DNA from: Candidatus Dojkabacteria bacterium
GTDB lineage: Bacteria; Patescibacteriota; Dojkabacteria; GCA-002793355
NCBI GenBank assembly: GCA_030583825.1
Contig: CP129477.1
Location: forward strand, 694,294 to 758,293
Direction of reading: 5' to 3'
Length of the DNA stretch: 64,000 nucleotides
Of the stretch, positions 5,907 to 61,307 are shown piece after piece. The notes below the pieces were generated by a model. That model searched no databases and was not told the DNA's origin. It saw only the letters and a program-made list of their open reading frames with translations. Position 1 is the first letter of the stretch, and each line of letters starts with the position of its first letter. The translations under genes were made by a program, and so were the position numbers.

Positions 5907-5912
5907 AAAATG

Positions 5913-14490: not shown

Positions 14491-16284
14491 TTACAAATCC
14501 AAAGCTTTACTCTGAATTTTCTCCTTTACCCGCTCGGCAAGATCATTAACTGAAATTTCTCCCAGTGATTGTCCATTTCGCAAGCGTACGTTAACAGTAC
14601 CATTTGCAACTTCCTGCTTTCCAATAACAATCATGTAGGGGACTTTTTCTTGCTGTGCTTCAAGAATTCTCTTGTTGAGTGTATTGCTTGAATCATCAAC
14701 GCTGACACGAATTCCTGGCAGAGATGCCTTCAATGAATCCACCACAGACTTTGCGTATTCCTGCTGGTCAAGGCCGATAGGAATAATGCGTACTTGTTCC
14801 GGGTGAAGCCAGACTGGAAATGCTCCAGCGAAGTGCTCAATCAAGAATGCCATGACTCTCTCAATTGCGCCAATGGAAGAGCGGTGAATAACGATCGCCT
14901 CTTCTTCTTTGCTTTCTTCGTTGATGTAGTTCAGTTTGAATCGTTTTGGCATAACAAAGTCGTATTGGACTGTGAACGCTGTATCTTCTTTTCCAAGCAC
15001 GTTTTTCATTTGAATATCAATCTTTGGGCCATAGAATGCTGCTTCGCCTTCTGCTTCGTAAAATGGTGCCTTTCTTGCCTCTAAAACACGTCGCAATACT
15101 GATTCTCCATATTCCCATGATTCATCGTCTTTAAAGTACTTTTTGTCGTCGGAACGATCACCGAGAGAAAGTCGGTAAGAGTAGTGTTCTCCTTCTTTTA
15201 GGCCGAAGGTTTCTGCAACTGCTTTAATCAGTTCGAGAACCTCGTTAATCATTTCTTGTGCTTGTTCTTTTGTACAGACGATATGGGCATCGGCCAAACA
15301 GAATGATCTCACGCGCATCAAGCCGGATAATTCGCCTGATTTTTCATAGCGATAGAGTTTTGCAAGCTCTGCAATTCTCATCGGCAATTCCTTGTAGCTT
15401 CGTGGCTTGCTCAAGTAGTACTCAAAGTGGTGGGGACATGTCATCGGACGGAGCATAAATCGCTCGTCATCAATCTCGATAGGTGCATACATCGAATCTT
15501 TGTAGTATGGGTAGTGCCCCGACTTTTGATAAAGTTCCAGCTTTGCAATATCTGGCGTATAGACGTGCAAGTATCCTCTGCGAAGCTCTTCGTCAACAAT
15601 GTAACGCTCTAATTCTCGGCGAATTGTCGAGCCTTTTGGTGTCCATAAAGGCAATCCTTTTCCAACAACGTCAGAAAATACGAATAAGTCGAGGTCTTTA
15701 CCAACTTTTCTGTGATCACGAAGTTGTGCTTCTTCCATACGCTTTAGGTAGTCATCAAGCTCTTGTTGTGAAGCAAATGCCGTTCCATAGACACGTGTAA
15801 GCATTTCGTTTTCTTCACTTCCTCGCCAATATGCGCCACCAACCGAGAGTAGCTTAAATGCTCCAATCTCGCCTGTACTTTCCACATGTGGGCCTTTGCA
15901 AAGATCTGCATAGCTTTCTCCTGTGTAGTAGAGAGAAACTTCTTTATCAGCTGCTGCAATTTCTTCAAGCCACTCAAGCTTGAATGGATTATCTTTAAAA
16001 ATTGCTTTTGCTTCTTCGTACGACACAATCTTTTTCACAATCGGTAAATCTGCAGCAATTATTTCTTTCATTTTTGCTTCGATTTTTGGTAAATCTTCGT
16101 CTGAAAGCTTTATATCCCAGCGTGCATCGTTTGACCAACCATCTTCAGAAATATGGGCAACTGCAAGCTTTACTTTGCCTGGAAACAGCTCAGTTACTGC
16201 CTGTGCAAAGACATGCTCGCACGAATGGCGAATTTTAAATAACTGTGAATCTTCAAATGCTTCTTTTTTCATGTTTTCACTCAA
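14491..16284 (-). CDS. thrS: Threonine--tRNA ligase
   Basis: The product shows RHSCEHV (editing HxxxH), YRYEKSGELSGLMRVRSFCLADAHIVC (class II motif 2) and a C-terminal anticodon-binding domain. Confidence 0.9.
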   Translation of the reverse strand: MSENMKKEAFEDSQLFKIRHSCEHVFAQAVTELFPGKVKLAVAHISEDGWSNDARWDIKLSDEDLPKIEAKMKEIIAADLPIVKKIVSYEEAKAIFKDNPFKLEWLEEIAAADKEVSLYYTGESYADLCKGPHVESTGEIGAFKLLSVGGAYWRGSEENEMLTRVYGTAFASQQELDDYLKRMEEAQLRDHRKVGKDLDLFVFSDVVGKGLPLWTPKGSTIRRELERYIVDEELRRGYLHVYTPDIAKLELYQKSGHYPYYKDSMYAPIEIDDERFMLRPMTCPHHFEYYLSKPRSYKELPMRIAELAKLYRYEKSGELSGLMRVRSFCLADAHIVCTKEQAQEMINEVLELIKAVAETFGLKEGEHYSYRLSLGDRSDDKKYFKDDESWEYGESVLRRVLEARKAPFYEAEGEAAFYGPKIDIQMKNVLGKEDTAFTVQYDFVMPKRFKLNYINEESKEEEAIVIHRSSIGAIERVMAFLIEHFAGAFPVWLHPEQVRIIPIGLDQQEYAKSVVDSLKASLPGIRVSVDDSSNTLNKRILEAQQEKVPYMIVIGKQEVANGTVNVRLRNGQSLGEISVNDLAERVKEKIQSKALDL

Positions 16285-26173: not shown

Positions 26174-26281
26174 GAAAAATAAAAAGGCGCCGCCACACGG
26201 CGGCAATAGCTTGAAGCTACGATTTCGGATAAACCTTGTTTGAACTCATAGTGCAATTCCAGATAGGTATCACCCAACTGT
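26174..26281 (-). ncRNA. tracrRNA: tracrRNA of the type II-A CRISPR-Cas system
   Basis: A minus-strand promoter is present, with -35 TTGATA (rc of 26311-26316), a 17-nt spacer and -10 TAGAAT (rc of 26288-26293). The anti-repeat GGGUGAUACCUAUCUGGAAUUGCACUAUGAGUUCAAAC (rc of 26237-26275) is imperfectly complementary to the CRISPR repeat and has a 2-nt bulge. It is followed by the nexus-like AAGGUUUAUCCG (compare SpCas9 AAGGCUAGUCCG) and the hairpin UAGCUU-CA-AGCUA. A terminal hairpin GCCGCC-GUGU-GGCGGC is followed by UUUUUAUUUUU. Confidence 0.75.
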
Positions 26282-26329
26282 GGTACAATTCTAACAAATA
26301 AGAAGTAACTTATCAACGATCACTGTATT

Positions 26330-29300
26330 ATGGCAAAATATTTAGGTTTAGATATTGGAACAAACAGTATTGGTTGGGCAGTTACAGATGAAAATTACAA
26401 CTTGTTAAAATATAACGAAACTCCTCTTTGGGGAATACATCTATACCCAGAAGCTAGTAATGCCAGCGAAGCTCGTGGGTATCGCTCAGCTCGCCGTGGT
26501 ACTCGTCGAAAAGCCTGGCGAATAAAAATATTACAAGAACTGTTTAATGAAGAAGTAGCGCAGGTTGATCCTGCGTTTTTTAGCAGAATTAGAGACAAAG
26601 AAGTCTATTCTTTGTTCAAGGATGATAAGGAATATTATGAGAAATTTCCAACAATACATCATTTAATTCTCTATTTACAAAAAATAAATGAGAGGCCTGA
26701 TATTCGGTATGTTTACCTGATGTGTTCTTATTATATGAAGCATAGAGGGCACTTCTACTCGAGCATAGATGAAAATGCTGATATCGAAAAAATTTTAGGT
26801 CTGCAAACTATTTTTGATGAGTTTCTTGAAGCTCTCAGGCTTCTTCCTATAGAGATATCCGATGTTAATATAAAAAATGTAGAGTCTGCGTTGAAACAAG
26901 AAAACGTGAGTAACAGGAAAAAGGCCTTAAAAGATGTATTATCAACAACCGATGATGAATTTAAAATCCTACCTGAGATTATAACGCTTTTGTCTGGAGG
27001 TAAAGCGAAACTACAAACTATCTTTCAAAACGAAGATCTTAAAAGTTTGTCTGTTATGGACACAGATCCTGAAAATGAGACAATGGCGGAGTTACAAACT
27101 GTACTAGGCGAGCAATTCGATATACTTCTAAAAGCAAAACAAATTACTGATTGGATTGTTTTATGTGATATTTTGAAAGATGCAAAGAGTATAAATGAAC
27201 AAAGACTTAACCTATATGAGGAGATAAAAAGTAAGAAAGAGCTTCGTGGAGAGAAATTAACTGAACACATGAAGGAAGAGCATAAGAAGAATCGAGTTAT
27301 TCCGTACCAATTACAGTGGAAAGATTTCAAAAAGGCGCTAAACAATATACAAAAGTTTTACCCTACTCTTGATGTCGAAAAGATAGGTCAACTATTCAAA
27401 CATAGAATTCCTTATTTTGTAGGGCCTCTTAAAGAAGATCAAAAAAATCGATGGAGTTGGATTAAAAAGAAAAATGATGAAAAAATTTACCCATGGAATT
27501 TCAATGAGGTTATAAATATTGAGGAGACACACTCAGGCTTTATAGAGAAAATGACCGCAAAGTGTACTTACCTCGTGGGAGAAGATGTGCTTCCAAAAGA
27601 AAGTATGCTCCATGCAAAGTATTTAATTCTCAACCAACTAAATAACCTTAAGATTGACGGTGAAAGAATTGATAATACCCTGAAACAGGAATTATTTCAA
27701 GATTTATTTGAAAAAGAATCAGGAACAGTTTCTTTAAAGAAAATCAAAGCTTGGTTGAAAAGTAAAAACCCTGCGTATAAAGATACAGAACTAACAGGTG
27801 TAGATACTACGATAGAAGGAACACTAAAAGCATATCATAATTTTAAGCCATATCTTGATAAGCTAAAGATGGGCGAGATAGAAGAGATTATAAAACGAAT
27901 AACAATATTTGGGGAAGAAAAGCAGAATTTAAAAAGTTGGATGGAAAAAACCTTTAATCATCTTGATGAAGAAGATATAAAGAAGATTTTACGATTTTCT
28001 TATAAAAAATATGCAAGACTTTCTAGAGAGTTTTTAGAAGGTATTATGTATGATGTCGAGGAAAGAGAATTAAGCATCATCCAGGCTTTGTGGGAGACGA
28101 ACAATAACTTGATGGAGCTGCTGTCTGATAAGTATGGATACGCTCTAAAAATAGAAGAATTTAATAAGAATGCCGTTAATAAAGCTACAACTCTTAATGA
28201 AAAGCTTGATGATTTATATATCTCAAATCGTGTTAAACGCTCAATTTTCAGAACACTTGCAGTGGTTAGTGAAATTATCAAAGCTATCGGTAAACCAGAC
28301 AAGATATTTATTGAAATGGCACGAGGAGAAGAGCTGAGTAAAAAAGGTAAGAAGACAAAAAGTCGCAAGGATGAGCTAAAAGAACTGTTGAGAGGCAATA
28401 AAGACCTACTAAACGAATTAGTGGGCAAAACAGATGATCAACTTCGTGGGAAAAAGCTATACCTCTATTTCTCTCAAATGGGAAAATGCATGTATACAGG
28501 CAAAACGATATCCCTTTCTTCTCTTAGTTCCGATAATTGGGATGTTGATCATATTTATCCTCGCTCGAAAGTCAAGGATGATAGCATCCGCAATAATCTT
28601 GTACTTGTAGATAAAAATGCCAATGGAGCAAAAACAGATAATTATCCATTACTTCCTGAGATACAGAATCGAATGTCTGGTCACTGGAATTTCTTGAAAG
28701 AAAAGGAATTAATTACCAATGAGAAATATTCTCGTCTGATGCGCAAAACTCCATTTACAGAAGATGAAAAAGTTAATTTCATTAATAGGCAATTAGTTGA
28801 AACAAGGCAAAGCACCAAAGCTATTGCCCAGCTTCTTAAGGAAAAATATAACGTAGAGATTGTTTATGTGAAATCCGAATTGTCCAGTGATTTTAGATAT
28901 ACTTATGAGATTCAGAAATGCCGTGAAATAAACGATTTTCATCATGCAAAAGATGCCTATCTAAATATCGTTTGTGGCGATGTCCATAATAGAGTATTTA
29001 CAAAAAATCCCAGAAACTTTATTAAGAAAGCAAATGATAGCAATTATACGATTAATCCTAAGGTTCTTTATAAAAGGCAATGGGATGGAACGGATATACT
29101 TTCCAGAATTAGGAAGACATTGAAAAGTAATCAAATTAAATACACAGAGATGATGTACGAACGTACAGGTTCATTCTGGGGAAAGACATTAGGCTTAATT
29201 CCTAGAAAAGGAAATATGACAGAATATTCTGAAAAGTCTTATGAATTATCAACAGCATTTTTTGCACTGGTTTCGTATGGGCCAGAAAGTAATAGAAAAA

Positions 29301-29914
29301 CAAAGTTATTGCCTGTTTATAACTACAAAATAGAAGAATTTTATAACGATGCAAATAAGTATTTTAATGGAACGCATAAGATGCTGGATAAAAGCGATTT
29401 AGATAATATAAAGTTTCTTCGCAAGGTAAAACTCGGTACCGTAGTTATTAAAAAAGGGATCCGCTATAGAATTACAGGCAATACCCATATGTTGCATGCC
29501 TATCAACTTACAATGCCATATGAACAAGAGAAATATTTCAAGAAGATAATTAAGGCCTTTGATAAAGATAATCCTAGACCAGAGGTACTTGTGAAAGAAG
29601 AGAATATAAAGTTATTTGAATTATTTAAAGGTAAACTGAGAGATTCCGTATATTCAAGGTTAAGCTCTTTGAACATTCAATTGAAATGGTTTGATAATAG
29701 TAAATTCGAAAGCCTTTCAATAAAAGAGCAAGCAGAATTTCTTAAAAATTCAATTAGCATGTTTACGGCAAATGCCGCAAAAGGTAATTTAAAGATTATT
29801 GATAAAAATGCTTCCGGTAATGTCGCTAATGGCCCTATGCCAAATGATTGCGATTACATTCTTGACCAATCTGTCACTGGACTGTTTGATAAGAAATATA
29901 GAGTGAAGGTATGA
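26330..29914 (+). CDS. cas9: CRISPR-associated endonuclease Cas9 (type II-A, 1194 aa)
   Basis: The N-terminal RuvC-I motif is LGLDIGTNSIGWAV. An Arg-rich bridge helix (ARRGTRRKAWRIKILQELF), the HNH motif (DVDHIYPRSKVKDDSIRNNLVLV) and RuvC-III (INDFHHAKDAYLNIV) are all present. The stop is TGA, overlapping the cas1 start. Confidence 0.95.
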   Translation: MAKYLGLDIGTNSIGWAVTDENYNLLKYNETPLWGIHLYPEASNASEARGYRSARRGTRRKAWRIKILQELFNEEVAQVDPAFFSRIRDKEVYSLFKDDKEYYEKFPTIHHLILYLQKINERPDIRYVYLMCSYYMKHRGHFYSSIDENADIEKILGLQTIFDEFLEALRLLPIEISDVNIKNVESALKQENVSNRKKALKDVLSTTDDEFKILPEIITLLSGGKAKLQTIFQNEDLKSLSVMDTDPENETMAELQTVLGEQFDILLKAKQITDWIVLCDILKDAKSINEQRLNLYEEIKSKKELRGEKLTEHMKEEHKKNRVIPYQLQWKDFKKALNNIQKFYPTLDVEKIGQLFKHRIPYFVGPLKEDQKNRWSWIKKKNDEKIYPWNFNEVINIEETHSGFIEKMTAKCTYLVGEDVLPKESMLHAKYLILNQLNNLKIDGERIDNTLKQELFQDLFEKESGTVSLKKIKAWLKSKNPAYKDTELTGVDTTIEGTLKAYHNFKPYLDKLKMGEIEEIIKRITIFGEEKQNLKSWMEKTFNHLDEEDIKKILRFSYKKYARLSREFLEGIMYDVEERELSIIQALWETNNNLMELLSDKYGYALKIEEFNKNAVNKATTLNEKLDDLYISNRVKRSIFRTLAVVSEIIKAIGKPDKIFIEMARGEELSKKGKKTKSRKDELKELLRGNKDLLNELVGKTDDQLRGKKLYLYFSQMGKCMYTGKTISLSSLSSDNWDVDHIYPRSKVKDDSIRNNLVLVDKNANGAKTDNYPLLPEIQNRMSGHWNFLKEKELITNEKYSRLMRKTPFTEDEKVNFINRQLVETRQSTKAIAQLLKEKYNVEIVYVKSELSSDFRYTYEIQKCREINDFHHAKDAYLNIVCGDVHNRVFTKNPRNFIKKANDSNYTINPKVLYKRQWDGTDILSRIRKTLKSNQIKYTEMMYERTGSFWGKTLGLIPRKGNMTEYSEKSYELSTAFFALVSYGPESNRKTKLLPVYNYKIEEFYNDANKYFNGTHKMLDKSDLDNIKFLRKVKLGTVVIKKGIRYRITGNTHMLHAYQLTMPYEQEKYFKKIIKAFDKDNPRPEVLVKEENIKLFELFKGKLRDSVYSRLSSLNIQLKWFDNSKFESLSIKEQAEFLKNSISMFTANAAKGNLKIIDKNASGNVANGPMPNDCDYILDQSVTGLFDKKYRVKV

Positions 29915-30798
29915 GCTGGCGTACTCTTGTTGTTACAGGGCGAGCAAAACTTGATTACCAACTTGGCTACATGGTGATCCGTAAAGATACAGAACAGCAA
30001 ATCTTTCTTGATGATGTAAATGTACTTATTTTAGAAAGTACAGCAATTTCATTGACAACCTATTTATTAAAAGAACTTGTGAATAAAAAGGTAAAGGTTG
30101 TTTTCTGTGATGACTTTCATAATCCTGCAGCAGAGCTAGCACCTTTTTATAATAATAAAATGTCTTCTGCCAACATAGAGCTCCAGATTGGCTGGAAAGA
30201 AGATATAAAGAAAAAAGTGTGGGCGGAAATCATAAAACAGAAAATCATTAATCAAGCGTTTGTTTTAGCAAAAAATGAACTAGTTGAGAAATCAAAACTA
30301 CTTTTAGAGTATGTAAAAGAAGTACAACTCGGTGATAGCACAAATAGAGAAGGACATGCTGCAAAAGTATATATGAATGCTCTGTTTGGGAATTCATTTT
30401 CCCGAGGACAAGATAATGAAATCAATTCAGCATTAAATTATGGTTATACAATACTTCTCTCAGCTTTTAATCGTGAAATTGTGGCCAGTGGTTATCTCAC
30501 TCAACTCGGTATAGCGCACCATAATACATATAATTATTTTAACCTGAGTAGCGATTTTATGGAGCCTGTTCGACCATTAATAGATTTATTTGTTAAGGAT
30601 TCTGACTTTAAAGAATTTGGGACAGAGCAAAAGCACCTGACCGTAGATATTTTAAACAGAGGAGTGAGGGTACGTAATGAGAAACAATATTTATCAAATG
30701 CCATTGCCATTTATGTGAAAAGCATTATCAATGTACTAAACAGCGACAAAGTAGAAGATATTAAATTTATAAATATAATGGAGGGTGAGCAGTTATAG
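29911..30798 (+). CDS. cas1: CRISPR-associated integrase Cas1 (type II)
   Basis: The 295-aa product carries EGHAAKVYMNALFG...LNYGYTILLSAFNREIVASGYLTQLGIAHH...DFMEPVRP with conserved Cas1 catalytic E/H/D positions. There is a 4-nt overlap with cas9. Confidence 0.9.
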   Translation: MSWRTLVVTGRAKLDYQLGYMVIRKDTEQQIFLDDVNVLILESTAISLTTYLLKELVNKKVKVVFCDDFHNPAAELAPFYNNKMSSANIELQIGWKEDIKKKVWAEIIKQKIINQAFVLAKNELVEKSKLLLEYVKEVQLGDSTNREGHAAKVYMNALFGNSFSRGQDNEINSALNYGYTILLSAFNREIVASGYLTQLGIAHHNTYNYFNLSSDFMEPVRPLIDLFVKDSDFKEFGTEQKHLTVDILNRGVRVRNEKQYLSNAIAIYVKSIINVLNSDKVEDIKFINIMEGEQL

Positions 30799-31108
30799 AT
30801 TTATGAGAATTATTGTTATGTTTGATATGCCTACAGATACTCTTCAAGAAAAGAGAGCGTATAGGTATTTTCGTAAGTATTTGGTTAAAGATGGATTTTT
30901 TATGATGCAGGAAAGTATATATGTCAAAATAGCAATTAACGCCGAATCTAGTAAGAGTATACTTAAGCGTTTAGAACGGAAAAAACCAGAATATGGGCTA
31001 GTTCAGATTATGCAAGTCACAGAAAGACAATTTGAGAAAATGATTTACCTAGTTGGTAAACCAATTAAGAAGGTAATTTCTTCAGATAAAAGACTAGTTA
31101 TTGTATGA
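30785..31108 (+). CDS. cas2: CRISPR-associated endoribonuclease Cas2
   Basis: The product is about 100 aa. MRIIVMFDMPTDTLQEKRAYRYFRKYLVKDGFFMMQESIYVK matches the Cas2 N-terminal beta-strand with catalytic Asp (MYDI-like). The probable true start is the Met at 30803. Confidence 0.8.
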   Translation: MSSYRFMRIIVMFDMPTDTLQEKRAYRYFRKYLVKDGFFMMQESIYVKIAINAESSKSILKRLERKKPEYGLVQIMQVTERQFEKMIYLVGKPIKKVISSDKRLVIV

Positions 31109-31773
31109 AACTACTATTGCCCCAAATTAATAACTCTTTCGATTTCGCTCAAAATAAAGTCAACAGGCTTGTGATAGAAAATTCCAGTGAATTTGCTAGA
31201 GTTATTCAAAAATTTAAAAATCAAGTTGATTTCGGTGAAAGTTATGCATCTTTATTTGATGATATAGTAGAACAAAATTTTACGAAATTAGTTGAGATCA
31301 TTTATTCTCCGATAGAGTTTAATATAAATACTCCCTTATTATTAAATAGCTTGCATAAGAACCTATCAATGGAAACTAGTAATGAACAATCTTTCTTAAA
31401 AACGGTAGAATTAAAAAGGCACATAGTAAACTATATACAAGACCTTCTCTATAATAAAGATGCAGATTTACTTTACGATGATGATCCTGATATTTCCAAA
31501 GTATTCAAAATGTTAGGGGTTAGATACAATGATGTATACGAAACAATTGTAGAAAAACTATTTAAGTTTCTAGTCGCAAGTCAAGAACTTGGGAGTAAAG
31601 AGATATTTTTATTTGTAAATCTCAGCGACTACTTATCTTCAGAGGAAAAAACAACTTTCTATAAAACAGTTCTTGCAAAAAACATAAAGATCTTTCTTAT
31701 AGATAGAAATTTTTATGAAAGAAATAGTTTAGAAAATCTTACTCTTATTGATAAAGATTTATGCGAACTATAA
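31105..31773 (+). CDS. csn2: Csn2-like protein (type II-A signature)
   Basis: The 222-aa product sits between cas2 and the array, where type II-A csn2 is found. The C-terminal region IFLFVNLSDYLSSEEKTTFYKTVLAKNIKIFLIDRNFYE parallels the short-form Streptococcus Csn2 ([35 protein letters not shown]). No Cas4-like Cys cluster or RecB motifs are present. Confidence 0.55.
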   Translation: MKLLLPQINNSFDFAQNKVNRLVIENSSEFARVIQKFKNQVDFGESYASLFDDIVEQNFTKLVEIIYSPIEFNINTPLLLNSLHKNLSMETSNEQSFLKTVELKRHIVNYIQDLLYNKDADLLYDDDPDISKVFKMLGVRYNDVYETIVEKLFKFLVASQELGSKEIFLFVNLSDYLSSEEKTTFYKTVLAKNIKIFLIDRNFYERNSLENLTLIDKDLCEL

Positions 31774-31915
31774 TGAGTTTCTCTTGATAAATTGGGAGGA
31801 ATATGATAGATTATGTTAAGGGAAGCTCTTTGATATTAAGTTGTTTTGGTTGCTCTATTTTTCATTTGCAGGTCTAATCAGCTTGTCCTCTATTCCTGTT
31901 AGTGAGGAATTTGAG
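31774..31915 (+). promoter_or_regulatory. CRISPR leader
   Basis: A 142-bp AT-rich non-coding stretch lies between csn2 and the first repeat. It ends with ATTTGAG directly abutting repeat 1, which equals the leader-anchoring motif described for Streptococcus type II-A arrays. Confidence 0.5.
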
Positions 31916-33205
31916 GTTTGAGAATAGTGCAATTCCAAAGGGGTATCAAACTCAAAAATCTGACGCATTGGAACATCTTCTGTTTGAGAATAGTGCAATT
32001 CCAAAGGGGTATCAAACACATAATGCGTTTATTAAAATTTAATTTACGTTTGAGAATAGTGCAATTCCAAAGGGGTATCAAACCGCTACAACGAGCGACT
32101 CAAAGTGCTTGGAGTTTGAGAATAGTGCAATTCCAAAGGGGTATCAAACAGGCATTTTTACCTTTGTTCCGTCCCAGTGGTTTGAGAATAGTGCAATTCC
32201 AAAGGGGTATCAAACTTTTACCTTACAGGTGCTCTCTAACGGATAGTTTGAGAATAGTGCAATTCCAAAGGGGTATCAAACCATGGAATATTCTTGTAAA
32301 AATCCCTTGTTGTTTGAGAATAGTGCAATTCCAAAGGGGTATCAAACAGTTCGAGCTATTGTTGCTGCTCTTCTAGCGTTTGAGAATAGTGCAATTCCAA
32401 AGGGGTATCAAACCAAAAGGACGTACATAAATGCAAGGTTCGAGTTTGAGAATAGTGCAATTCCAAAGGGGTATCAAACCGGTTACATGCGCTTTATCAC
32501 CCGCTGAAGGTTTGAGAATAGTGCAATTCCAAAGGGGTATCAAACTCTGCGTGATATTTATTCCACCATTCCTTGGTTTGAGAATAGTGCAATTCCAAAG
32601 GGGTATCAAACCATCACCATCACCATTTGGTTTAATTTCTAGTTTGAGAATAGTGCAATTCCAAAGGGGTATCAAACTGCAACATCAGCTTTAAATTTAC
32701 CCTCTTTGTTTGAGAATAGTGCAATTCCAAAGGGGTATCAAACTGCAACATCAGCTTTAAATTTACCCTCTTTGTTTGAGAATAGTGCAATTCCAAAGGG
32801 GTATCAAACTCACAGATGATGCACTTATTTATGGATTTGGTTTGAGAATAGTGCAATTCCAAAGGGGTATCAAACCTTACATTGGACGCATGTTTTACGT
32901 GTATCGTTTGAGAATAGTGCAATTCCAAAGGGGTATCAAACTACAACTCTTTGCTCAAGTGGAGGAAGAAAGTTTGAGAATAGTGCAATTCCAAAGGGGT
33001 ATCAAACACCCTATAATCGTATACGGTGCTCTCTTGAGTTTGAGAATAGTGCAATTCCAAAGGGGTATCAAACACCAGAGTATCTTGTTACAAAAGGTGA
33101 ACTGTTTGAGAATAGTGCAATTCCAAAGGGGTATCAAACAATCTGTGTGTAAAGTATGTTGACCGTTCCGTTTGAGAATAGTGCAATTCCAAAGGGGTAT
33201 CAAAC
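31916..33205 (+). CRISPR. CRISPR array with 20 direct repeats (36 bp) and 19 spacers (30 bp)
   Basis: The repeat GTTTGAGAATAGTGCAATTCCAAAGGGGTATCAAAC recurs every 66 bp from 31916 to 33170. Every repeat read appears identical, including the terminal one. Spacers 12 and 13 (32678-32707 and 32744-32773) are identical (tgcaacatcagctttaaatttaccctcttt). Confidence 0.97.
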
Positions 33206-36115: not shown

Positions 36116-37192
36116 ATGGAAAATGGCGAACTTGGCAAGTCATTTTTAAAGTCGTATATTCAAAAGACTGACGGAAAAATAGTCTCTTATTTCGAGAAAA
36201 AAATTGCGGAGGCGAACCAAGTTGGGGAAATTCCTGCACAAAATATTGCAGCATACGTAGAAACAGTTCGAAGAGGTAAGCGAATTCGCGGCTCATTAAT
36301 TACTTTGGGCTATAAACTCGCAGGCGGAACAGAAGAAGAAAAAATTATTGATGCGAGTATCGCAATTGAGCTATTCCATGCTGGTGTTTTGGTTCACGAT
36401 GACATTATGGATAGAGATCACATTCGCCGTGGTCTTCCAACAATGCATAAGCAGTACGAAAAATCGGGAGAAGAGCTTGAAATTAAAGATGCCGCACACT
36501 ACGGTGTATCACAAGCCATCAACCTTGCCGACGCCGCATACTATATGTCGTGGCAAACGCTCTTGGAATCAGGATTCTCATACGAAGATATCGTAAACGC
36601 TGGAAAAATCTATGCAGACTATGTGCTAAGGGTTGTGCATGGACAGGTTCTCGACGTTGCAAACCTTGCTGTACGCCAAACAACAGAAGAAAAAATCCTC
36701 AATGTATTGAAATATAAAGCAGCCGAATATACCGGAGTTATGCCGTTACTTTTTGGTGCTGCGCTCGCCGGACTAAACGATAAAAAGGTCACAGATGCCG
36801 TTATTCGCTATGGATTAGCATTTGGATGGGCATTCCAGATTCAAGATGATATTCTCGGCGTTTTCGGTGAGGAAGAAGAATTTGGAAAGCCAATTGGCAA
36901 CGATGTTCGCGAAGGAAAAAATACGCTTTTGACGCTTTATGTTCAGCAACATGGAACAAAAGAACAAAGAGAGTTTCTTGATCACTGTATGGGTAACGAA
37001 AAGATTTCCCGCGAGGATGTACTAAAAGTCCGAGAAATTATGAAAGACTGTGGCTCATATGACCATGTATTCAACCTGGGATGGCAGTATGTAGAAGAAG
37101 GAAAGTCAGCCGTTGCCGAAGTCACAGATAATGAAGAGATTCAAAAGATCTTGAGATCCCTGATTGTGTATATGATGGAGAGAGTAAAGTAA
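36116..37192 (+). CDS. Polyprenyl (geranylgeranyl/farnesyl) diphosphate synthase
   Basis: The first DDxxD motif is LVHDDIMDRDHIRRG and the second is FQIQDDILGVFG. The 358-aa length fits. Confidence 0.8.
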   Translation: MENGELGKSFLKSYIQKTDGKIVSYFEKKIAEANQVGEIPAQNIAAYVETVRRGKRIRGSLITLGYKLAGGTEEEKIIDASIAIELFHAGVLVHDDIMDRDHIRRGLPTMHKQYEKSGEELEIKDAAHYGVSQAINLADAAYYMSWQTLLESGFSYEDIVNAGKIYADYVLRVVHGQVLDVANLAVRQTTEEKILNVLKYKAAEYTGVMPLLFGAALAGLNDKKVTDAVIRYGLAFGWAFQIQDDILGVFGEEEEFGKPIGNDVREGKNTLLTLYVQQHGTKEQREFLDHCMGNEKISREDVLKVREIMKDCGSYDHVFNLGWQYVEEGKSAVAEVTDNEEIQKILRSLIVYMMERVK

Positions 37193-37200
37193 CCTATTCT

Positions 37201-37265
37201 CTGAAAAAGAGTACTTGATTCTTAACGCCGAATAGACCATATGTCGACTAAATCTGCGTGCTTTT
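37201..37265 (+). repeat. 3'-proximal repeat family B, copy 1
   Basis: ctgaaaaagagtacttgattcttaacgccgaatagaccatatgtcgactaaatctgcgtgctttt is about 80% identical to 61097-61164 and to the reverse complement of 38206-38270. It starts 9 nt after the stop of the polyprenyl synthase gene. Confidence 0.6.
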
Positions 37266-37330
37266 CCCTCGAATTGATTACTTTAATCAAAATACTGAGC
37301 TTATCTTTCAGAATTTTACAAAACTCGTAA

Positions 37331-37699
37331 CTAACTCTTTGCGGCTCTTGCCAATTTTCTATCAAGCGTGAGTAGCTTTAGTTTAGAGAGTTTTGATTTT
37401 TCAAGTAACCAAGCATCTACAAAACCAAGGCTAGTAGTACAATATCTCTCTAAAGCTTGAAAATTTAGCTTCTTATCTTCAACTTCAAATTGTTGAACAT
37501 CTAAAAAGTATTTCAGAAGTAATATTTTCTGTTTAGGGTAGTGATAAAAGGAACGTAAAACAAATATAGTTTCTGCAAATACGACAGAGGTTATGTAACA
37601 TTTATGTTGTCTTACAAAGTCTTCTGCTTTTTCTGTAAGTACTTCATCTTCAGGGACAAGAAGCCTAATGATTATATTTGTGTCTATAAGTGCTACCAT
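37331..37699 (-). CDS. PIN-domain toxin (VapC-like)
   Basis: MVALIDTNIIIRLL shows the N-terminal Asp of the PIN fold. The 122-aa gene abuts the antitoxin gene. Confidence 0.6.
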   Translation of the reverse strand: MVALIDTNIIIRLLVPEDEVLTEKAEDFVRQHKCYITSVVFAETIFVLRSFYHYPKQKILLLKYFLDVQQFEVEDKKLNFQALERYCTTSLGFVDAWLLEKSKLSKLKLLTLDRKLARAAKS

Positions 37700-37948
37700 T
37701 TATATTTCTCTCATATTTTCGTAAGCCTTTTTACGGATTGTGTTGAAAGATAGTCCTTTCCCAGAAACTGGAGGTTTCCCGAGTATTCCAATGACATCTT
37801 TAAGAGATCGGCGTGGTTTTATTAAGATGACTCCATTTTTCTCGGAAATCTCTACCTGGCTGAATGGCTGCAAAGAAGGAAATTTCTTTCTGATTGCTTT
37901 TGGAATTGTCACTTGGAATTTGGGACTTACTGATGAAGTTATATTTTC
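37700..37948 (-). CDS. AbrB/SpoVT-family antitoxin
   Basis: MENITSSVSPKFQVTIPKAIRKKFPSLQ is the swapped-hairpin DNA-binding motif. The track ORF extends to 37990, but that N-terminal extension contains the palindrome ATGTAATacaATTACAT plus TATAAT, which looks like promoter and operator rather than coding sequence. Confidence 0.55.
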   Translation of the reverse strand, partial: ENITSSVSPKFQVTIPKAIRKKFPSLQPFSQVEISEKNGVILIKPRRSLKDVIGILGKPPVSGKGLSFNTIRKKAYENMREI

Positions 37949-38205
37949 CATACGTAGCGTTTGTTTATGTAATTGTATTACATTATACATAAGTTTTACG
38001 TTTAGATAAAGTATTACTTTTTGCCTTTGGAATATTATAAACTAGGAAAAATGAATGAAAAGTTAAGGGTGACTATCCAAAATGCTGGAGAAATGAAGAG
38101 TAATAGTATGGAAACTATTAAGTTGAAACATGATGTGACAGGGCACGCAGTAAAAAGCTCGTTCAATCAATAGTTGGATTTCTAATAACTCTGAATTCTG
38201 TGAAT

Positions 38206-38270
38206 AAAAGCACGCAGGTTTAGCTAACAGATGGTTTATTTAGCGTTAAGAACCGAGTATTTCCCTGGAG
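38206..38270 (-). repeat. 3'-proximal repeat family B, copy 2 (minus orientation)
   Basis: The reverse complement reads ...aaatactcggttcttaacgctaaataaaccatctgttagctaaacctgcgtgctttt. It starts 14 nt after the stop of the DUF2207 gene on the minus strand. Confidence 0.6.
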
Positions 38271-38284
38271 CAGAATGTTTTAAC

Positions 38285-40327
38285 TTACCACCCACCGCCT
38301 CCGCCACCACCTCCACCGCCGCCTGAGGAGCCTCCGCCATATCCGGAGCTGCTTGTTGGGTTAACAGATGCTGCGGCAACACTTGAAGAAAGGCTATTAC
38401 TGAATGACTGACCAAAATTAGAGGAGAAATATGCGATATTGTGACCTGCGTACCAGTTTGGTTCGTATCCCGATGCACGAGCGTTTTCAATAATATCATG
38501 AAATTCCTTTGTCCATGCCGTTTCTACGTCAAAAGCAATAGCAAATGGCAGTAATTTTTCATATGTTTTAATGTCTTTAGGTAGCTCTTTGTTAAAGAAC
38601 TTTATTCGTTCTTCTTCTGCGAGTGTCATATATCGTTTTAGTCCGTCCAGTGCGTTTTGTGCTTCTGACCCTTTCGCTGTTCGAGCTTTAATTGCAGAGA
38701 AGAACACTGAATGTAAGATAAGTTGAATGAATAGGCTCATGACTCCAAATACCGAGATGTAAATGCTCGAAAAAAACAATGTGAAAAGACCGACACAGGC
38801 GAATGGAATAAGAAATGCGGAAGAGAGAAGTCTTTGAAGTGTCGGCATTTGTGCTGTAAATGCACCACGAATGATTGTGACAACTACGCCGTTCCAAATG
38901 ATTGCAAAAAGTAAAAGACCGTATGCATCTCCGCCGCCAGCTCTTGCCATGTCTATAAGGATAATAAGTCCGTATAATCCGCTGATAAGCAATCCCAGAA
39001 CAAAGTATTGAATGCCGCGAGTAAAATATGTGCCATCAAATTGTCTGCCAAGTGAATGCTTAAATTGGTTTGTCATTTCTTCAATCTTTTTATAGTAGGC
39101 AGAGGAAAACAACAGTGTTTTTGTGTCTCCTGGGAACATCATTGCGTAAAGAACTTGCTCATCGTCGGTAAGCGACGCAACTCCTGTTGTTAGTTTTTCG
39201 ACTGCGAACTTTTCTTCACTGAAAAAAGGAACGCCTTTTACTGAAATCTTGGTTGTAACATCATAATCTTTTGCCGGAAGATCTCCTGCACGCTCTACCT
39301 CAAATGCTTCACTATCGGTAACTTCGATAATTTTAATATATCCTTTAACTGCGAGGCCAATAATTGTAGCGGTGAGCGCTTTTGAGTCATATCCCATTTG
39401 AGTAAGATACCTACTTGCGCCAGGGCTAATTCCGTCAACGGGTTTATACTGCGGAACAGCGACTCTAATGCCCTTGTCACGTCCAAAAAGCCACCATAAA
39501 CCAAAGTAAAACACGGTAAGCACCAAAGTGAGGACAACACCCCCAAATGCCGAAATATTGTCAAATATGAAGCGTAGAGTGCCTTGTATGGTGGTCGGCT
39601 CAGGGATAATTCCCTTTGGAAAAGTGACGACCGCTGTCATTCCTTCAAGCTGGTCAAGGCTGCGTGTTGCCTCGATAACTACTGCTGGACGTCCGTTTTG
39701 CTGAGTCTTATGAAATCTTACCGCTTGCTCGTTTGAGCCAGAAATACCGGTGAATCCCTTTACCATCACGCTTGCAATCGTGGTTTCTTCAGGAAGTAAA
39801 ATCGTTGCTTTCGCTTCATTAATAGGGAACTTCCAGTCATTGCCGGTGATGTTGTAGTAGAGCTCGTCGTATTCAGGGAAAAATCCTATTTGCCGAGTAG
39901 TTTTGTATGTAATTTCATATACATAGCGTCCTGGAGGAATGACGATATCTTCGTCTCCAATGTAAATTCTCTGTCCATTGGTCAGTGTTTCTGTGCTATA
40001 AGGCTCGTTCTTTCCATCCTTTTTAATGTTGAGGATAGAAAATCCGCGCAGCGATTTGAATCCAAAGCCGTGGGGATATGCAGTAGGGAAGTCTCGGTAA
40101 ATGCCGTGGTTTATATTGATATTCTTGGCAGTAACGGTGATTTTTTCAGTGACGATTAAATCGCCGTTTTTCTGTACATCAATGATACTTTCCCATGTTT
40201 CAATTGCTTCACGTGCTGGTGCAAAGCCCAAAGGTGAACTTTGTGCCGCGACTGGTGAAATTATAAACAAGCTTAGAAAAATGCCGAACATAACGGCAAT
40301 ATAAAAAAGTATCAATTTGGATTTCAT
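38285..40327 (-). CDS. DUF2207-family membrane protein with a poly-Gly C-terminus
   Basis: The 680-aa product has a signal peptide, a large extracellular domain, about four transmembrane helices and a cytoplasmic tail ending SSSGYGGGSSGGGGGGGGGGGW. This architecture is typical of COG4907/DUF2207. Confidence 0.6.
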   Translation of the reverse strand: MKSKLILFYIAVMFGIFLSLFIISPVAAQSSPLGFAPAREAIETWESIIDVQKNGDLIVTEKITVTAKNININHGIYRDFPTAYPHGFGFKSLRGFSILNIKKDGKNEPYSTETLTNGQRIYIGDEDIVIPPGRYVYEITYKTTRQIGFFPEYDELYYNITGNDWKFPINEAKATILLPEETTIASVMVKGFTGISGSNEQAVRFHKTQQNGRPAVVIEATRSLDQLEGMTAVVTFPKGIIPEPTTIQGTLRFIFDNISAFGGVVLTLVLTVFYFGLWWLFGRDKGIRVAVPQYKPVDGISPGASRYLTQMGYDSKALTATIIGLAVKGYIKIIEVTDSEAFEVERAGDLPAKDYDVTTKISVKGVPFFSEEKFAVEKLTTGVASLTDDEQVLYAMMFPGDTKTLLFSSAYYKKIEEMTNQFKHSLGRQFDGTYFTRGIQYFVLGLLISGLYGLIILIDMARAGGGDAYGLLLFAIIWNGVVVTIIRGAFTAQMPTLQRLLSSAFLIPFACVGLFTLFFSSIYISVFGVMSLFIQLILHSVFFSAIKARTAKGSEAQNALDGLKRYMTLAEEERIKFFNKELPKDIKTYEKLLPFAIAFDVETAWTKEFHDIIENARASGYEPNWYAGHNIAYFSSNFGQSFSNSLSSSVAAASVNPTSSSGYGGGSSGGGGGGGGGGGW

Positions 40328-45991: not shown

Positions 45992-46011
45992 ATATACCTC
46001 TACGGGTATAT
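45992..46011. promoter_or_regulatory. Second degenerate copy of the ATATACCC-N4-GGGTATAT palindrome
   Basis: ATATACCTCTACGGGTATAT matches 16/20 positions of the site at 57610-57629. It lies in the 400-bp intergenic region between divergent genes (45752 minus and 46161 plus). Confidence 0.4.
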
Positions 46012-46160
46012 GCTGAAAAGAAAAGTATCCTTTCTTTACTCTCTCTAAGATAGTGGGTGCGATAGGAATGAATAGACTATGTGTATAGTCTTTATTGTTC
46101 TCCTTTACTTATTTTGAGGCCTCAAGTACTATTCTTATTAACTAAGTTATCTTTTTTATT

Positions 46161-46708: not shown

Positions 46709-47194
46709 TCACTGATCTGTCTGTGGTGGACGAGAGGATTCTCGCTTACGACGGTATTCGACTAATACAAACGCGACTGCTTCAATTATATTACTTGCTT
46801 TTGCAGTTGCGGTTACACCGTTGAATAGGATTGAAGCGTTGTATCCGTCAAGTTTTCTGCTGATATGTATCTCAATCGCGATTCTGTAGATACCAGAGAT
46901 ATTGACGAAATTCAACATTCCAACAGTCATGGCAGACCAATGGGGAGATTCAGCAATAATGCCTTGCATTTGCTGCAAGCAATTCGCAACTGCTGTTTCA
47001 ATATAGTGCCCATTGCCGACAAATTCGTTCTCTCCGGATTTCAGAAAAAACGAAATTGGTGAGTCTTCATTTCCAGTCGCTTTTGCCAGACCGGATAACT
47101 CACCTATGAAAAGATTCGAGATTGCAATTTGTAGCTCTGTTGCCACTGCCTTTCTCCTTTGTATAGGATCTTCTGATAGAGAATTATACCACAA
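46709..47194 (-). CDS. Hypothetical protein
   Basis: This is a 161-aa ORF with no recognised motif. Confidence 0.35.
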   Translation of the reverse strand: MWYNSLSEDPIQRRKAVATELQIAISNLFIGELSGLAKATGNEDSPISFFLKSGENEFVGNGHYIETAVANCLQQMQGIIAESPHWSAMTVGMLNFVNISGIYRIAIEIHISRKLDGYNASILFNGVTATAKASNIIEAVAFVLVEYRRKRESSRPPQTDQ

Positions 47195-56911: not shown

Positions 56912-57757
56912 CTAGGAAATTTTCGACTGTAAAGGCGCTTTCTGAAATGGCGGTTTCTTCTTTGAGTATATCCCGTATTGTTTATGAAGTATCCGAAGAT
57001 ATTTTCTTGATTTTTTCTTTGATTCCACTTCGCGGGCAATATTATCACGTGTTTGCATTGATGTGAGTATCCTCTTTACAAAGGTTTGATATACCGGGGG
57101 GAGTATCTTGTAACGTTTTCCTTCGGGGGATGGTAAATTTTGGTTTACGATTTGAAGAATCACAAGCAACTGCTGGAGATCTTTATGAAGGACAGGCTTA
57201 TTTTGCTGAATATCAGTTAAAAAGCGAGAGAATAGGCTTGCTGCTTCGAGTAGAAGTTCAAATGTTCCAGTTTTAAGCGCAGCAGGATCACTCGCATGTG
57301 AAGACGCTATTGCTTCTAAATCTGCCAAGGACAGCGCTTTGGATGAAGGAATTGCGAGAGCATATTGTTTTTTAAGGTATGCTGCCAACTCAACAGTAAT
57401 TGCAATAAGAGAAAGTGCCGAGAAATGTTGAGAAGAGGGAGACGTTGTTTCTGTGGTTCCTAATGATGACAATTCTTTTGCTGCATCTGAGTCGAGATAT
57501 CCGAACATAACAGCTTTCTTTATGAGTCGTTTTGAGGAAGTTATCCTCCGTTTTGCTTGAAATGGCACAAAATCCATATATAAATTATACCACTCTCTTT
57601 TCTTGACGCATATACCCCCGGGGGTATATACTGACCCATGACCCCAGAAACAGTTGAACAAATAAAAAACCGCTTCAAACGTAGTGAAGGCCAGCTCAAA
57701 GCTGTCATAAAAATGATAGAAGAGGGAAGTGGCGATCCAAAACAAGTCATGATTCAA
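56912..57757 (-). CDS. Hypothetical protein
   Basis: The 281-aa ORF has its start overlapping the divergent promoter/operator region of the DUF156 regulator. Its real start may be an internal Met. Confidence 0.3.
   Translation of the reverse strand: MNHDLFWIATSLFYHFYDSFELAFTTFEAVFYLFNCFWGHGSVYTPGGICVKKREWYNLYMDFVPFQAKRRITSSKRLIKKAVMFGYLDSDAAKELSSLGTTETTSPSSQHFSALSLIAITVELAAYLKKQYALAIPSSKALSLADLEAIASSHASDPAALKTGTFELLLEAASLFSRFLTDIQQNKPVLHKDLQQLLVILQIVNQNLPSPEGKRYKILPPVYQTFVKRILTSMQTRDNIAREVESKKKSRKYLRILHKQYGIYSKKKPPFQKAPLQSKIS
57603..57632 (+). promoter_or_regulatory. Promoter with an embedded perfect 20-bp palindromic operator
   Basis: The -35 TTGACG (57603-57608) and -10 TATACT (57627-57632) are separated by 18 nt. 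The spacer is occupied by ATATACCCCCGGGGGTATAT (57610-57629), a perfect palindrome. The regulator ATG lies 5 nt after the -10, suggesting a leaderless transcript. Confidence 0.5.
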
Positions 57758-57868
57758 CTCAGTGCGGTCATTTCCAGCCTTGAGAATGCCAAAATCCAGC
57801 TTGTAGAAGAGTATACAAAGGCGACAATAATCAAATCTATTAGCGGAATTTCGGATTTATTGAAGTAA
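57638..57868 (+). CDS. CsoR/RcnR-family (DUF156) transcriptional repressor lacking Cys/His metal ligands
   Basis: The 76-aa product reads IKNRFKRSEGQLKAVIKMIEEG...QLSAVISSLENAKIQLVEEY, matching the CsoR/RcnR/FrmR helix pattern (RLKRIEGQVRGLQRMVEE...). The sequence has no Cys or His at all. Confidence 0.55.
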   Translation: MTPETVEQIKNRFKRSEGQLKAVIKMIEEGSGDPKQVMIQLSAVISSLENAKIQLVEEYTKATIIKSISGISDLLK

Positions 57869-59766: not shown

Positions 59767-61080
59767 ATGAGTGAGAGAATTCCGCCACACAATATAGATG
59801 CAGAAAAAAGCGTATTAGGTGCCTTTCTTATTGATAAAGACGCTCTCGTTCGTGTTGCGAGCTTCCTTCGTGCAGAGCATTTTTACGAAAAACGTCATCA
59901 GGTACTGTATCAGGCCATTATTGACCTATTTATGGCGGGCATTCCAATTGACTTGCTCACAATCGTAGACTACCTCAAAAAGAAAAAAGACCTCAAAACT
60001 GTCGGTGGACGATCATATATTGCCGATTTAATCAGTAGTGTTCCAACATCAGCACATGCGGAAGAATATGCAAGAATCGTAAAAGAGGCATCAATTCGCC
60101 GAAGGTTAATCACTGCCGCCGCCGATATTACCGACCTTGCATTTGATTCTGACAAGCCAACTGCCGATGTGTTAAATCAAGCACAGCACGATCTCTTTTC
60201 TGTCTCGGTACAGGGAATAGACAAAGGATTTATACATATTCGAGATTTACTTGAACAGTCTTATGAAGAAGCAGCACTAGTTAACTCAAGTGACTCGGGA
60301 TTAACGGGTGTTTCAACAGGTTTCAAAGATTTGGACGGATTGCTCGGCGGACTTCAGAAATCCGACCTGGTTATTCTTGCTGCGCGACCTTCCATGGGTA
60401 AAACGTCTTTTGCGTTGGATCTCATGCGAAATATTGCATTGGAAAAGAAAAATGTAGCATTTTTCTCTCTTGAAATGTCCCAATCACAGCTTTCAAACCG
60501 CCTTCTGGCGATGCAAAGCGGAGTAGGGTTGTGGGCAAGCCGAACCGGCCAACTTACTGATGATGAATTTGCCCGGCTTGGTGAAGGAATCGGTGTTCTT
60601 TCAGAACTCAATATCTTTATTGATGACCAACCTGGCCAAAATATTGTTGAGCTTCGTACAAAAGCACGACGTTTGTATCTGGAACAGGGAATTGATGCAA
60701 TTTTCATTGACTACTTACAGCTTATTCACGGAAATTCCAAAGAAGGAAGAGTCCAGGAAGTATCACAAATCTCTCAAGAACTTAAAAACATGGCACGTGA
60801 GTTAAAAGTCCCTGTTGTTGCGCTTTCACAGCTTTCACGAAAAGTAGAAGATCGAAACGATCGTATGCCTCAACTTTCGGACTTACGAGATTCTGGTTCT
60901 ATCGAACAAGATGCAGACGTTGTTATGTTTATTCACAGAGAAGACTATTACGATCAGGAAACCGAAAAGAAGGGAATTGCAGAAATTAGAATTTCAAAGC
61001 ATCGAAATGGCCCAGTTGGCAGTGTAGAGTTGGCATTTGTAAAAGAATTAGCAAGTTTCAGAAACCTTTTTAAGGATTAA
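59767..61080 (+). CDS. dnaB: Replicative DNA helicase DnaB
   Basis: N-terminal PHNIDAEKSVLGAFLID, Walker A ARPSMGKTSFAL, and Walker B / RecA-like core (IFIDYLQLI) are all present. The product is 437 aa. Confidence 0.9.
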   Translation: MSERIPPHNIDAEKSVLGAFLIDKDALVRVASFLRAEHFYEKRHQVLYQAIIDLFMAGIPIDLLTIVDYLKKKKDLKTVGGRSYIADLISSVPTSAHAEEYARIVKEASIRRRLITAAADITDLAFDSDKPTADVLNQAQHDLFSVSVQGIDKGFIHIRDLLEQSYEEAALVNSSDSGLTGVSTGFKDLDGLLGGLQKSDLVILAARPSMGKTSFALDLMRNIALEKKNVAFFSLEMSQSQLSNRLLAMQSGVGLWASRTGQLTDDEFARLGEGIGVLSELNIFIDDQPGQNIVELRTKARRLYLEQGIDAIFIDYLQLIHGNSKEGRVQEVSQISQELKNMARELKVPVVALSQLSRKVEDRNDRMPQLSDLRDSGSIEQDADVVMFIHREDYYDQETEKKGIAEIRISKHRNGPVGSVELAFVKELASFRNLFKD

Positions 61081-61096
61081 CCTTTATATCGTATTT

Positions 61097-61164
61097 CAGA
61101 AAAAAGAGTACTCGGTTCTAAACGCTAAATAACCCATGTATTAGCTAAACCTGCGTGCTTTTTT
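61097..61164 (+). repeat. 3'-proximal repeat family B, copy 3
   Basis: cagaaaaaagagtactcggttctaaacgctaaataacccatgtattagctaaacctgcgtgctttttt starts 16 nt after the dnaB stop. Confidence 0.6.
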
Positions 61165-61307
61165 CTTCAACACTCTATAAAGTTTATTGTTGAGTGCCAC
61201 AGAATGTGTTGCAGAAAGTGGCACAGTCTTGGTATGTAGGTTAAAAATAACCCATTTGTCGGGGCTTCTCTTTGCGCACATTTTTTAGTATAATCTCGTT
61301 AGCACAT

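Follow-up and report, generated by a model that had tools for sequence, protein, structure and literature searches.

Introduction

Small dispersed hairpin repeats at the 3' ends of genes are well known from Proteobacteria, Neisseria and streptococci. The Correia elements of Neisseria (CREE/NEMIS), ERIC/IRU, BOX and RUP are small non-coding repeats that are co-transcribed with the genes next to them and form long hairpins. They can serve as terminators or RNase targets, and they are each restricted to a single lineage and occupy polymorphic positions. Elements of the Correia type measure 100-160 nt or more, carry clear terminal inverted repeats and lie on either side of genes in either orientation. 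Correia elements also duplicate a TA target. CPR genomes, at about 1 Mb, are usually held to be streamlined and poor in repeats.

Among the closest described systems are the REP sequences and BIMEs (REPINs), species-specific dispersed imperfect palindromes. They occur mainly 3' of genes, whether the neighbouring genes are unidirectional or convergent, and their transcripts plausibly form RNA hairpins (PMC3733652). REP325 of Escherichia coli serves as both a terminator and a stabiliser of the upstream mRNA, and the locations of REPs vary among strains (bioRxiv 10.64898/2026.03.23.713779). Our literature searches returned no description of such repeats in Patescibacteria/CPR.

Whereas REP sequences are known from Proteobacteria, the repeat analysed here, termed family B, resides in a CPR bacterium. 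It was noticed in a 64,000-nt stretch of genomic DNA (hereafter the window) by an initial annotation made from the sequence alone. The closest relatives in GTDB of the DnaB protein encoded in the window belong to Candidatus Dojkabacteria (WS6, Patescibacteria), with 71-76% identity. Coordinates of the features discussed are collected in Table 1.

Results

Three copies of the repeat in the window

The initial annotation had described three copies of an element of about 65 nt, some 80% identical to each other, each lying shortly after a stop codon, oriented with the gene upstream and ending in a T-run. All of this was borne out. Two consensus sub-patterns matched exactly at the three places and gave three matches each (37219/37248 and 61116/61145 on the plus strand, 38231/38206 on the minus strand), with chance expectations of 0.00 and 0.23. 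Measured pairwise identities were 79-93%, namely 93% over 54 nt for c2/c3, 81% over 54 nt for c1/c3 and 79% over 62 nt for c1/c2. The identities assigned to the upstream genes, polyprenyl synthase, dnaB and DUF2207, agreed with the Pfam matches.

The copy c1 starts 8 nt past the TAA stop of the polyprenyl synthase gene (37190-37192), c2 starts 16 nt past that of dnaB (61078-61080), and c3 starts 14 nt past that of the DUF2207 gene (38287-38285, minus strand). Family B has a core of 51 nt; when the A and U runs are included, the element measures about 65 nt. In c1, the A-run GAAAAAGAG precedes a core running from GTACTTGATTCTTAACGC to CTAAATCTGCGTGC and a T4 run, and in c2 an A-run precedes a core running from GTACTCGGTTCTAAACGC to GCTAAACCTGCGTGC and a T6 run. 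The terminal T-runs occupy 37262-37265 (T4, c1), 61159-61164 (T6, c2) and 38209-38206 (T4, c3). Stop codons read from the sequence in all six frames eliminated read-through or a small open reading frame as an explanation, and a tRNA fragment or T-loop was rejected because GGTTCTTAA is incompatible with a T-arm.

The three copies face different neighbours. Downstream of c1 lies a convergent PIN toxin gene with its stop at 37331, whereas the end of c2 is 143 nt upstream of tRNA-Leu(CAA), and c3 is located upstream of the promoter of the MazE/PIN operon. A promoter-like site for this toxin-antitoxin operon, TTTTCA-16-TATAAT, lies 3' of c3, and a TATAAT hexamer can be read 3' of c2, just upstream of tRNA-Leu. 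The toxin-antitoxin module itself is flanked by c1 and c3, which are inverted relative to each other. A 29-nt stretch immediately preceding the start of the antitoxin gene loosely resembles the 5' half of family B (p ~0.1).

Table 1. Positions of the repeat copies, their upstream genes and other features of the window and of contigs L104, L107 and L114. Positions without a contig name refer to the window.
Feature	Position	Strand	Remarks
Family B copy c1	37201..37265	+	3' of polyprenyl synthase gene; 90.3 bits
Family B copy c2	61097..61164	+	3' of dnaB; 92.8 bits
Family B copy c3	38206..38270	-	3' of DUF2207 gene; 87.6 bits
Family B copy c4, divergent	L104 12432-12495	-	just outside the window; 23.5 bits (R1), 48 bits (R2)
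Polyprenyl synthase gene	36116..37192	+	upstream of c1; Pfam PF00348, E 3e-55
dnaB replicative helicase gene	59767..61080	+	upstream of c2; Pfam DnaB_C, DnaB
DUF2207 membrane protein gene	38285..40327	-	upstream of c3; Pfam PF09972, PF20990
PIN (VapC-like) toxin gene	37331-37699	-	
MazE/AbrB-type antitoxin gene	37700-37990	-	
29-nt stretch upstream of antitoxin start	37994-38022	-	
Distal CTGCGTGC	38143..38150	-	~55 nt downstream of c3; also present in the strain without the 3' half of c3
Possible degenerate copy AAATAACCCATTTGTCGGGGCTTCTCTTTGCGCACATTTTT	61245..61285	+	3' of c2; compared with the 3' two-thirds of c2
Stretch TTCTTAGGCAATAAAAACAAGCAGTTGTTAGAACTTCTTTATCGCGTGCTTTC	L104 12373-12425	-	directly 3' of c4
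Island between ruvB region and gyrA	L104 6437-12334		~6-11 kb past the window end
Allele of run SRR23814899 at c2	L114 1-40		~ window 61132-61170
Family A copy	4064-4168	+	
Family A copy	5911-6015	+	
Family A copy, sister species	L107 11080-11185		right after polyprenyl synthase
Type II-A CRISPR-Cas9 locus	26248-33205		
Repeat-like 30-mer	26248-26277		upstream of cas9; candidate tracrRNA anti-repeat
cas9	26330-29914		
cas1	29911-30798		
cas2	30785-31108		
csn2	31105-31773		
CRISPR array	31915-33205		20 repeats of 36 nt (GTTTGAGAATAGTGCAATTCCAAAGGGGTATCAAAC), 19 spacers of 30 nt
Palindrome ATATACCCCCGGGGGTATAT and two weaker copies	57610-57641, 63212-63243, 45992-46023		
CsoR-type metal repressor gene	~57638-57868		

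A fourth copy downstream of gyrA

Logan contigs added about 6.8 kb on the left side of the window and about 17.5 kb on the right side, giving a total of about 88.6 kb of DNA from this species. The extension contained one further, divergent copy, c4, which begins 9 nt past the TAA stop of gyrA in the same orientation as that gene. Four blocks of c4 are identical to the other copies (GUACUCGGUU, UUAACGC, GCUA and AACCUGCGUGC), and 32 core positions are identical. The fold is kept in c4, although its outer stem is an unrelated one made of G-C pairs and P2 is longer by one G-C pair; the apical loop has been replaced and is short, and there is no U-tract. The tetranucleotide CGTC occurs only in the 5' flank of c4.

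All four copies in the ~88.6 kb start 8-16 nt past a TAA stop and are co-oriented with the gene. By a rough estimate, this would have a probability of ~6e-5 if position and orientation were random inside these four intergenic spacers. With respect to the leading strand, the orientations are split 2:2 (the GC skew is positive throughout). The contrast between 2:2 and four of four implies that the elements follow transcription and not replication.

Several stretches downstream of the copies resemble parts of family B. Directly 3' of c4, TTCTTAGGCAATAAAAACAAGCAGTTGTTAGAACTTCTTTATCGCGTGCTTTC resembles c3 (p 0.01, uncorrected) and, judged by its sequence, may be a decayed second copy supplying the GCGTGCTTT end absent from c4. 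The distal CTGCGTGC 3' of c3 may likewise be what is left of the 3' arm of an earlier copy. The stretch 3' of c2 scored 23 against c2 where the null gave 18.1 +/- 3.1, which is not significant (p ~0.09). Since the best p values of the candidates 3' of c2, c3 and c4 are 0.01-0.09 before correction for multiple tests, the presence of degenerate relic copies there is only suggestive.

The island next to gyrA is probably strain-specific. It encodes an orphan protein of 1325 aa (QY314_03505), whose only match among 5.8 billion proteins is itself, and a low-complexity protein of 217 aa. The same island carries the gene for a 407-aa XerC/D-like tyrosine recombinase with its 3' end toward c4. No direct repeats flanking the island were found, and c4 was rejected as the att site of the island, there being no second partial copy at the far end.

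Covariation supports an interrupted hairpin

RNAalifold applied to c1-c3 predicted an interrupted hairpin of 21 pairs, including three compensatory pairs. In P1, GUAC pairs with GUGC, and pairing between the A-run and the U-run extends the stem. P2 is formed by CGGUU and AACCUG. It is separated by an asymmetric 6x2 internal loop, with CUUAAC in the 5' strand and UA in the 3' strand, from P3, in which GCUAA pairs with UUAGC below the apical loop. The A-run and the U-run flank the hairpin in c1 and c2.

Covariation was assessed on c1-c3, c4 and the c1 orthologue of another strain. In this set of five distinct sequences, two of which are orthologues so that the statistics are weak, 92.2% of the pair cells were standard, as opposed to 27-47% when the 3' partners were slid by 1-3 columns. 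Changes on both sides of a pair numbered six, versus 1-3 in the slid controls, and none of 500 shuffles reached the observed score. The folding energy, on the other hand, was ordinary, with z between -2.3 and +0.7 among the copies and -4 to -8 kcal/mol for the core alone; c2 had a minimum free energy of -14.5 kcal/mol (z -2.28), and the antisense folds were as stable as the sense folds. The excess of paired cells at ordinary energies indicates that the fold is supported by covariation, not by thermodynamics. Among non-Watson-Crick pairs on the sense strand, 14 G.U cells stood against 3 A.C cells, many of them inherited, and this excess fits an RNA read in the direction of the gene.

Unpaired loop nucleotides are kept in all copies. 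The outer stem is the most variable part, being A/U in c1 and c2, GGGAAA in c3 and GGCG/CGCC in c4. The earlier statement that there was no conserved GC hairpin, and that the covarying positions did not maintain pairing, is therefore contradicted by the 21-pair hairpin, its proportion of paired cells and the six both-sided changes. The hairpin was probably missed because it is not GC-rich and its energy is unremarkable.

Relation to intrinsic terminators

Directly after the stem, c1, c2 and c3 carry U4, U6 and U4, respectively. On the opposite strand of c1, the hairpin is followed by CTCTTTTTC, toward the convergent PIN gene, and a U-run after the hairpin on both strands makes bidirectional action possible at this copy. 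Some other genes of the window end in strong canonical terminators, as do the minus-strand genes at 14491-16284 (-20.5 kcal/mol) and 46709-47194 (-23.1 kcal/mol), from which we conclude that the organism uses intrinsic termination.

A simple terminator scan called none of the copies, and the stem is a long one with interruptions and many A-U and G-U pairs that is not GC-rich at the U-tract, so the view that family B is not a textbook intrinsic terminator stands. The initial annotation had named the discovery of a plain terminator hairpin as a refutation; an imperfect hairpin with compensatory changes does reach up to the T-run, which goes half of the way to such a refutation. A non-canonical terminator is the best of the three candidates put forward at that time, although the premise that there was no hairpin was wrong. 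For the other two candidates, an sRNA and a protein-recognition site, the observations speak neither for nor against. A pure terminator role does not explain c4, which has no U-tract but keeps the 32 identical core positions.

Variation between strains and copy number

In strain L110, which is 99% identical, c1 differs by four transitions (A-U to G.U, U.G to C-G, C-G to U.G and C.A to C-G). All four keep or restore a pair, which suggests selection on the fold. The same strain has lost 36 nt from the 3' half of c3, including the 3' arm, so that this copy is dispensable. The model joins the remaining 5' half of c3 in L110 to the distal CTGCGTGC arm, but only weakly (E 0.13-0.17).

Run SRR23814899 has another allele at c2, where 23 nt of unrelated sequence, GATAAATACTAATATGTCCATAA, take the place of the 3' half of the element next to the right flank GTGCTTTTTTCTTCAAC. 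The contig is short; from its sequence, the allele could represent either a shortened form of the hairpin (AUACU...AGUGC followed by a U-run) or elements arranged in tandem. No precise empty site was seen within the species.

Four dnaB-carrying Logan contigs, obtained from four runs, break off within c2 at an identical base, and the contig downstream of this break starts 30 nt earlier. A contig end shared at a 30-mer in c2 points to a branch of the k-mer graph, with the 30-mer recurring in one or more other loci, and hence to the existence of more copies. Extrapolated from four copies in 88.6 kb, a genome of 1.09 Mb would hold about 50.

Family B in databases and relatives

Rfam, to which the initial annotation had pointed, contains no family that matches the element. 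At the gathering threshold, Rfam 15 recognized only tRNA in the whole window, and at E values up to 10 the region 37150-38330 gave nothing over c3 and a chance-level match to DLEU2_5 (E 5.9) touching the last bases of c1. An exact degenerate pattern had no match in 185,579 GTDB species genomes, and a looser pattern had 18 in JGI metagenomes, all judged on inspection to be chance. No match to family B was obtained from IMG/VR, nor by blastn against phages and plasmids. With a covariance model, family B was absent from 528 kb covering 34 other Dojkabacteria loci, and the models R1 and R2 found only generic hairpins in these 34 loci and the sister species. Weak matches of the model within the window, at 15992, 52727 and 57961, lie inside coding sequence and were discarded as chance.

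In three relatives (L023, L025 and L027), the synteny of dnaB and tRNA-Leu(CAA) is kept with a shorter spacer that has no element. The sister species, with a polyprenyl synthase 79% identical, keeps the convergent pair of polyprenyl synthase and DUF2207 genes and has no copy of family B at the sites of c1 or c3; a 329-nt spacer lies between the two genes, without the toxin-antitoxin module. The DUF2207 gene of the sister species is followed by a canonical terminator, CGAAAAUAUGCC-UUGCUC-GGCAUGUUUUCG, and family B thus sits where a terminator would be expected.

Being absent from orthologous sites, polymorphic between strains and a point at which assemblies break, family B behaves like a young repeat restricted to its lineage. 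On these sequence comparisons, a young, lineage-specific, dispersed repeat is the best reading.

A second hairpin repeat and other loci in the window

The window also contains two copies of a hairpin repeat of about 105 nt, family A, which are 87% identical. One lies 35 nt past the thioredoxin stop, antisense to the thioredoxin gene, and the other, which has a U-run at its end, begins directly past the stop codon of an orphan ORF of 408 aa. In the sister species, a family A copy occupies the position that c1 has in this species. Three pairs of family A are compensatory between the two species, and a Logan contig breaks inside its first copy. Both families occur at gene 3' ends of this lineage and form hairpins in which some pairs are compensatory, and they share the 9-mer TTCTTAACG and GCTAA at equivalent hairpin positions. 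Family A differs from family B in its length of 105 nt, in having one of three copies antisense and in being common to two species. Homology of the two families was rejected despite the shared 9-mer, as local alignments were not significant (p 0.01-0.5).

A type II-A CRISPR-Cas9 locus, found here in a CPR genome, includes two adjacent identical spacers. In the sister species, the same locus encodes a different Cas9 of 1090 aa in inverted orientation, accompanied by cas1 and cas2 but not by csn2. None of the 19 spacers matched the element or any locus with up to five mismatches, and a link between family B and CRISPR was rejected on this ground. Furthermore, the palindrome ATATACCCCCGGGGGTATAT lies directly upstream of the gene for a CsoR-type metal repressor and is probably the operator of that repressor.

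Discussion

We propose, with moderate confidence, that family B is a lineage-specific dispersed hairpin repeat that would act as an atypical terminator, as a stabiliser of 3' ends, or as both. Transcribed on the sense strand of the upstream gene, the repeat would fold into the long interrupted hairpin. Located 8-16 nt past the stop and running into a U-tract in three of the four copies, this hairpin could bring about atypical factor-independent termination. As an alternative or joint role, the same hairpin could protect the upstream mRNA as a 3'-end stem-loop. At c1, termination would operate in both directions, separating the upstream gene from the next transcription unit. New 3' ends might acquire the repeat by transposition in trans or by gene conversion. 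A MITE- or REP-like origin, which the initial annotation had counted as a refutation, is compatible with a terminator role.

The repeat could instead be a miniature mobile element of the selfish kind (MITE, REP or PATE-like), useless to the host and copied by a transposase encoded elsewhere. Its restriction to one species-level lineage would be expected of such an element, as would its absence from the dnaB-tRNA-Leu spacer of relatives and from the c1 and c3 sites of the sister species, the 93% identity of c2 and c3, and the breaks of assemblies inside c2. The strain differences, that is, the 36-nt loss in c3 and the different sequence to the left of the c2 right flank in SRR23814899, fit as well. 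Insertions just past stops might simply be tolerated, or the element might target existing terminator hairpins; a constant core with differing outer stems looks as if the core had landed in different hairpins, and the second hairpin repeat family in the window behaves similarly. Yet no target-site duplication could be read from the sequence around the four copies, conservation is lowest at the outermost ends, opposite to the terminal repeats of transposons, and no transposase, RAYT or TnpA was found in the ~88 kb. Moreover, four of four copies are co-oriented with transcription at 2:2 with respect to the leading strand, and the between-strain substitutions all preserve pairing. We consider a purely selfish element unlikely. 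Another role would lie in the RNA itself, as a sequence-specific recognition module in 3' UTRs that either binds a protein or RNase or yields a 3'-UTR-derived sRNA. The recognition helix would consist of GUACUCGGUU and AACCUGCGUGC with the UAAC/UA internal loop, and it would co-regulate dnaB, gyrA and other genes post-transcriptionally. This would explain why c4, devoid of a U-tract and with a new outer stem and apical loop, has kept the four core blocks (48 bits with R2) and why unpaired loop nucleotides are conserved in all copies; the G.U bias fits a sense-strand RNA, and two of the four host genes are replication genes. The copies are young, though, and may share the loop sequence by common descent. 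Regulatory RNAs are usually common to a genus or family, but family B is not conserved beyond one species, with 528 kb of Dojkabacteria sequence negative; c3 is truncated in one strain, and the host genes are functionally unrelated. A recognition module therefore seems quite unlikely to us.

A more specific version takes the intact core of c4 as a dedicated recognition site, either for an RNA-binding protein or RNase with a CPR-specific 3'-UTR regulon (dnaB, gyrA) or for a single-strand enzyme that would install the element at a fixed distance past stops; we rate it as very unlikely. Lastly, family B might act as DNA: it could be a site at which a tyrosine recombinase recombines or attaches DNA, fold in the manner of attC, or be bound by a nucleoid or uptake protein. 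The position of c4, at the border of a strain-specific island and next to the gene for a XerC/D-like tyrosine recombinase, is in line with this, as is the inverted arrangement of c1 and c3 around a toxin-antitoxin module missing from the sister species. By our own reading, TCTTAAC and GTTAGCT match the attC core motifs RYYYAAC and GTTRRRY, respectively, at 6/7 positions each. These motifs are, however, internal and unpaired in c1, there is no cassette array and no intI, and the genes next to the copies are core genes. No partial duplicate of the element lies at the opposite end of the island, c2 has no recombinase or island nearby, and an uptake sequence would be much denser than about one copy per 22 kb. 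As compensatory changes and G.U pairs point to base pairing and not to a protein site in duplex DNA, we regard a role at the DNA level as highly improbable. An atypical terminator or 3'-end stabiliser remains our preferred reading.

The lineage has at least two families of such repeats (A and B), which turn over between strains and between sister species. The occurrence of family B in place of a canonical terminator suggests that copied modules can replace terminators even in a minimal genome. Because family B breaks short-read assemblies, it marks where CPR MAGs fragment, and it offers a simple template for the study of transcription termination in CPR bacteria. Almost nothing is known of post-transcriptional control in this phylum, and if a recognition site or an installing enzyme were to prove true, it would represent a mode of targeting or regulation not described before.

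Compared with the known systems, family B shares with bidirectional intrinsic terminators an A-run, a hairpin and a U-run right past the stop, and c1 lies between convergent genes. Canonical terminators are unique in sequence and have a short GC-rich stem (~5-14 pairs) with a loop of 3-8 nt, whereas family B is a repeated sequence with about 21 interrupted pairs and a 6x2 internal loop, and c4 lacks the U-tract. Of the features of MITEs, presence/absence differences at orthologous sites were found (L023, L025, L027 and the sister species), but target-site duplication, conserved terminal inverted repeats and an autonomous partner were not. In contrast to Correia-type elements, family B has no target duplication, its ends are least conserved, and all four copies are co-oriented just past stops. 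Identity with integron attC was rejected, since the look-alikes are internal and unpaired in c1 and there is no cassette array or intI context. REPs are 20-40 bp long and bear an unpaired GTAG or CGTC tag (PMC3733652), whereas family B has a 51-nt core, 65 nt with the runs, and starts with a paired GTAC, GTGC or ATAC. Furthermore, REPs often form inverted pairs and usually exceed 100 copies, and many are linked to a RAYT (Y1 HUH transposase); the copies of family B are solitary and extrapolate to about 50 per genome, with no RAYT among the genes of the ~88 kb. Family B fails the defining features of REP, MITE, attC and textbook terminator alike. It is nevertheless not a new kind of system, and by comparison with the described repeats it appears functionally analogous to REP elements.
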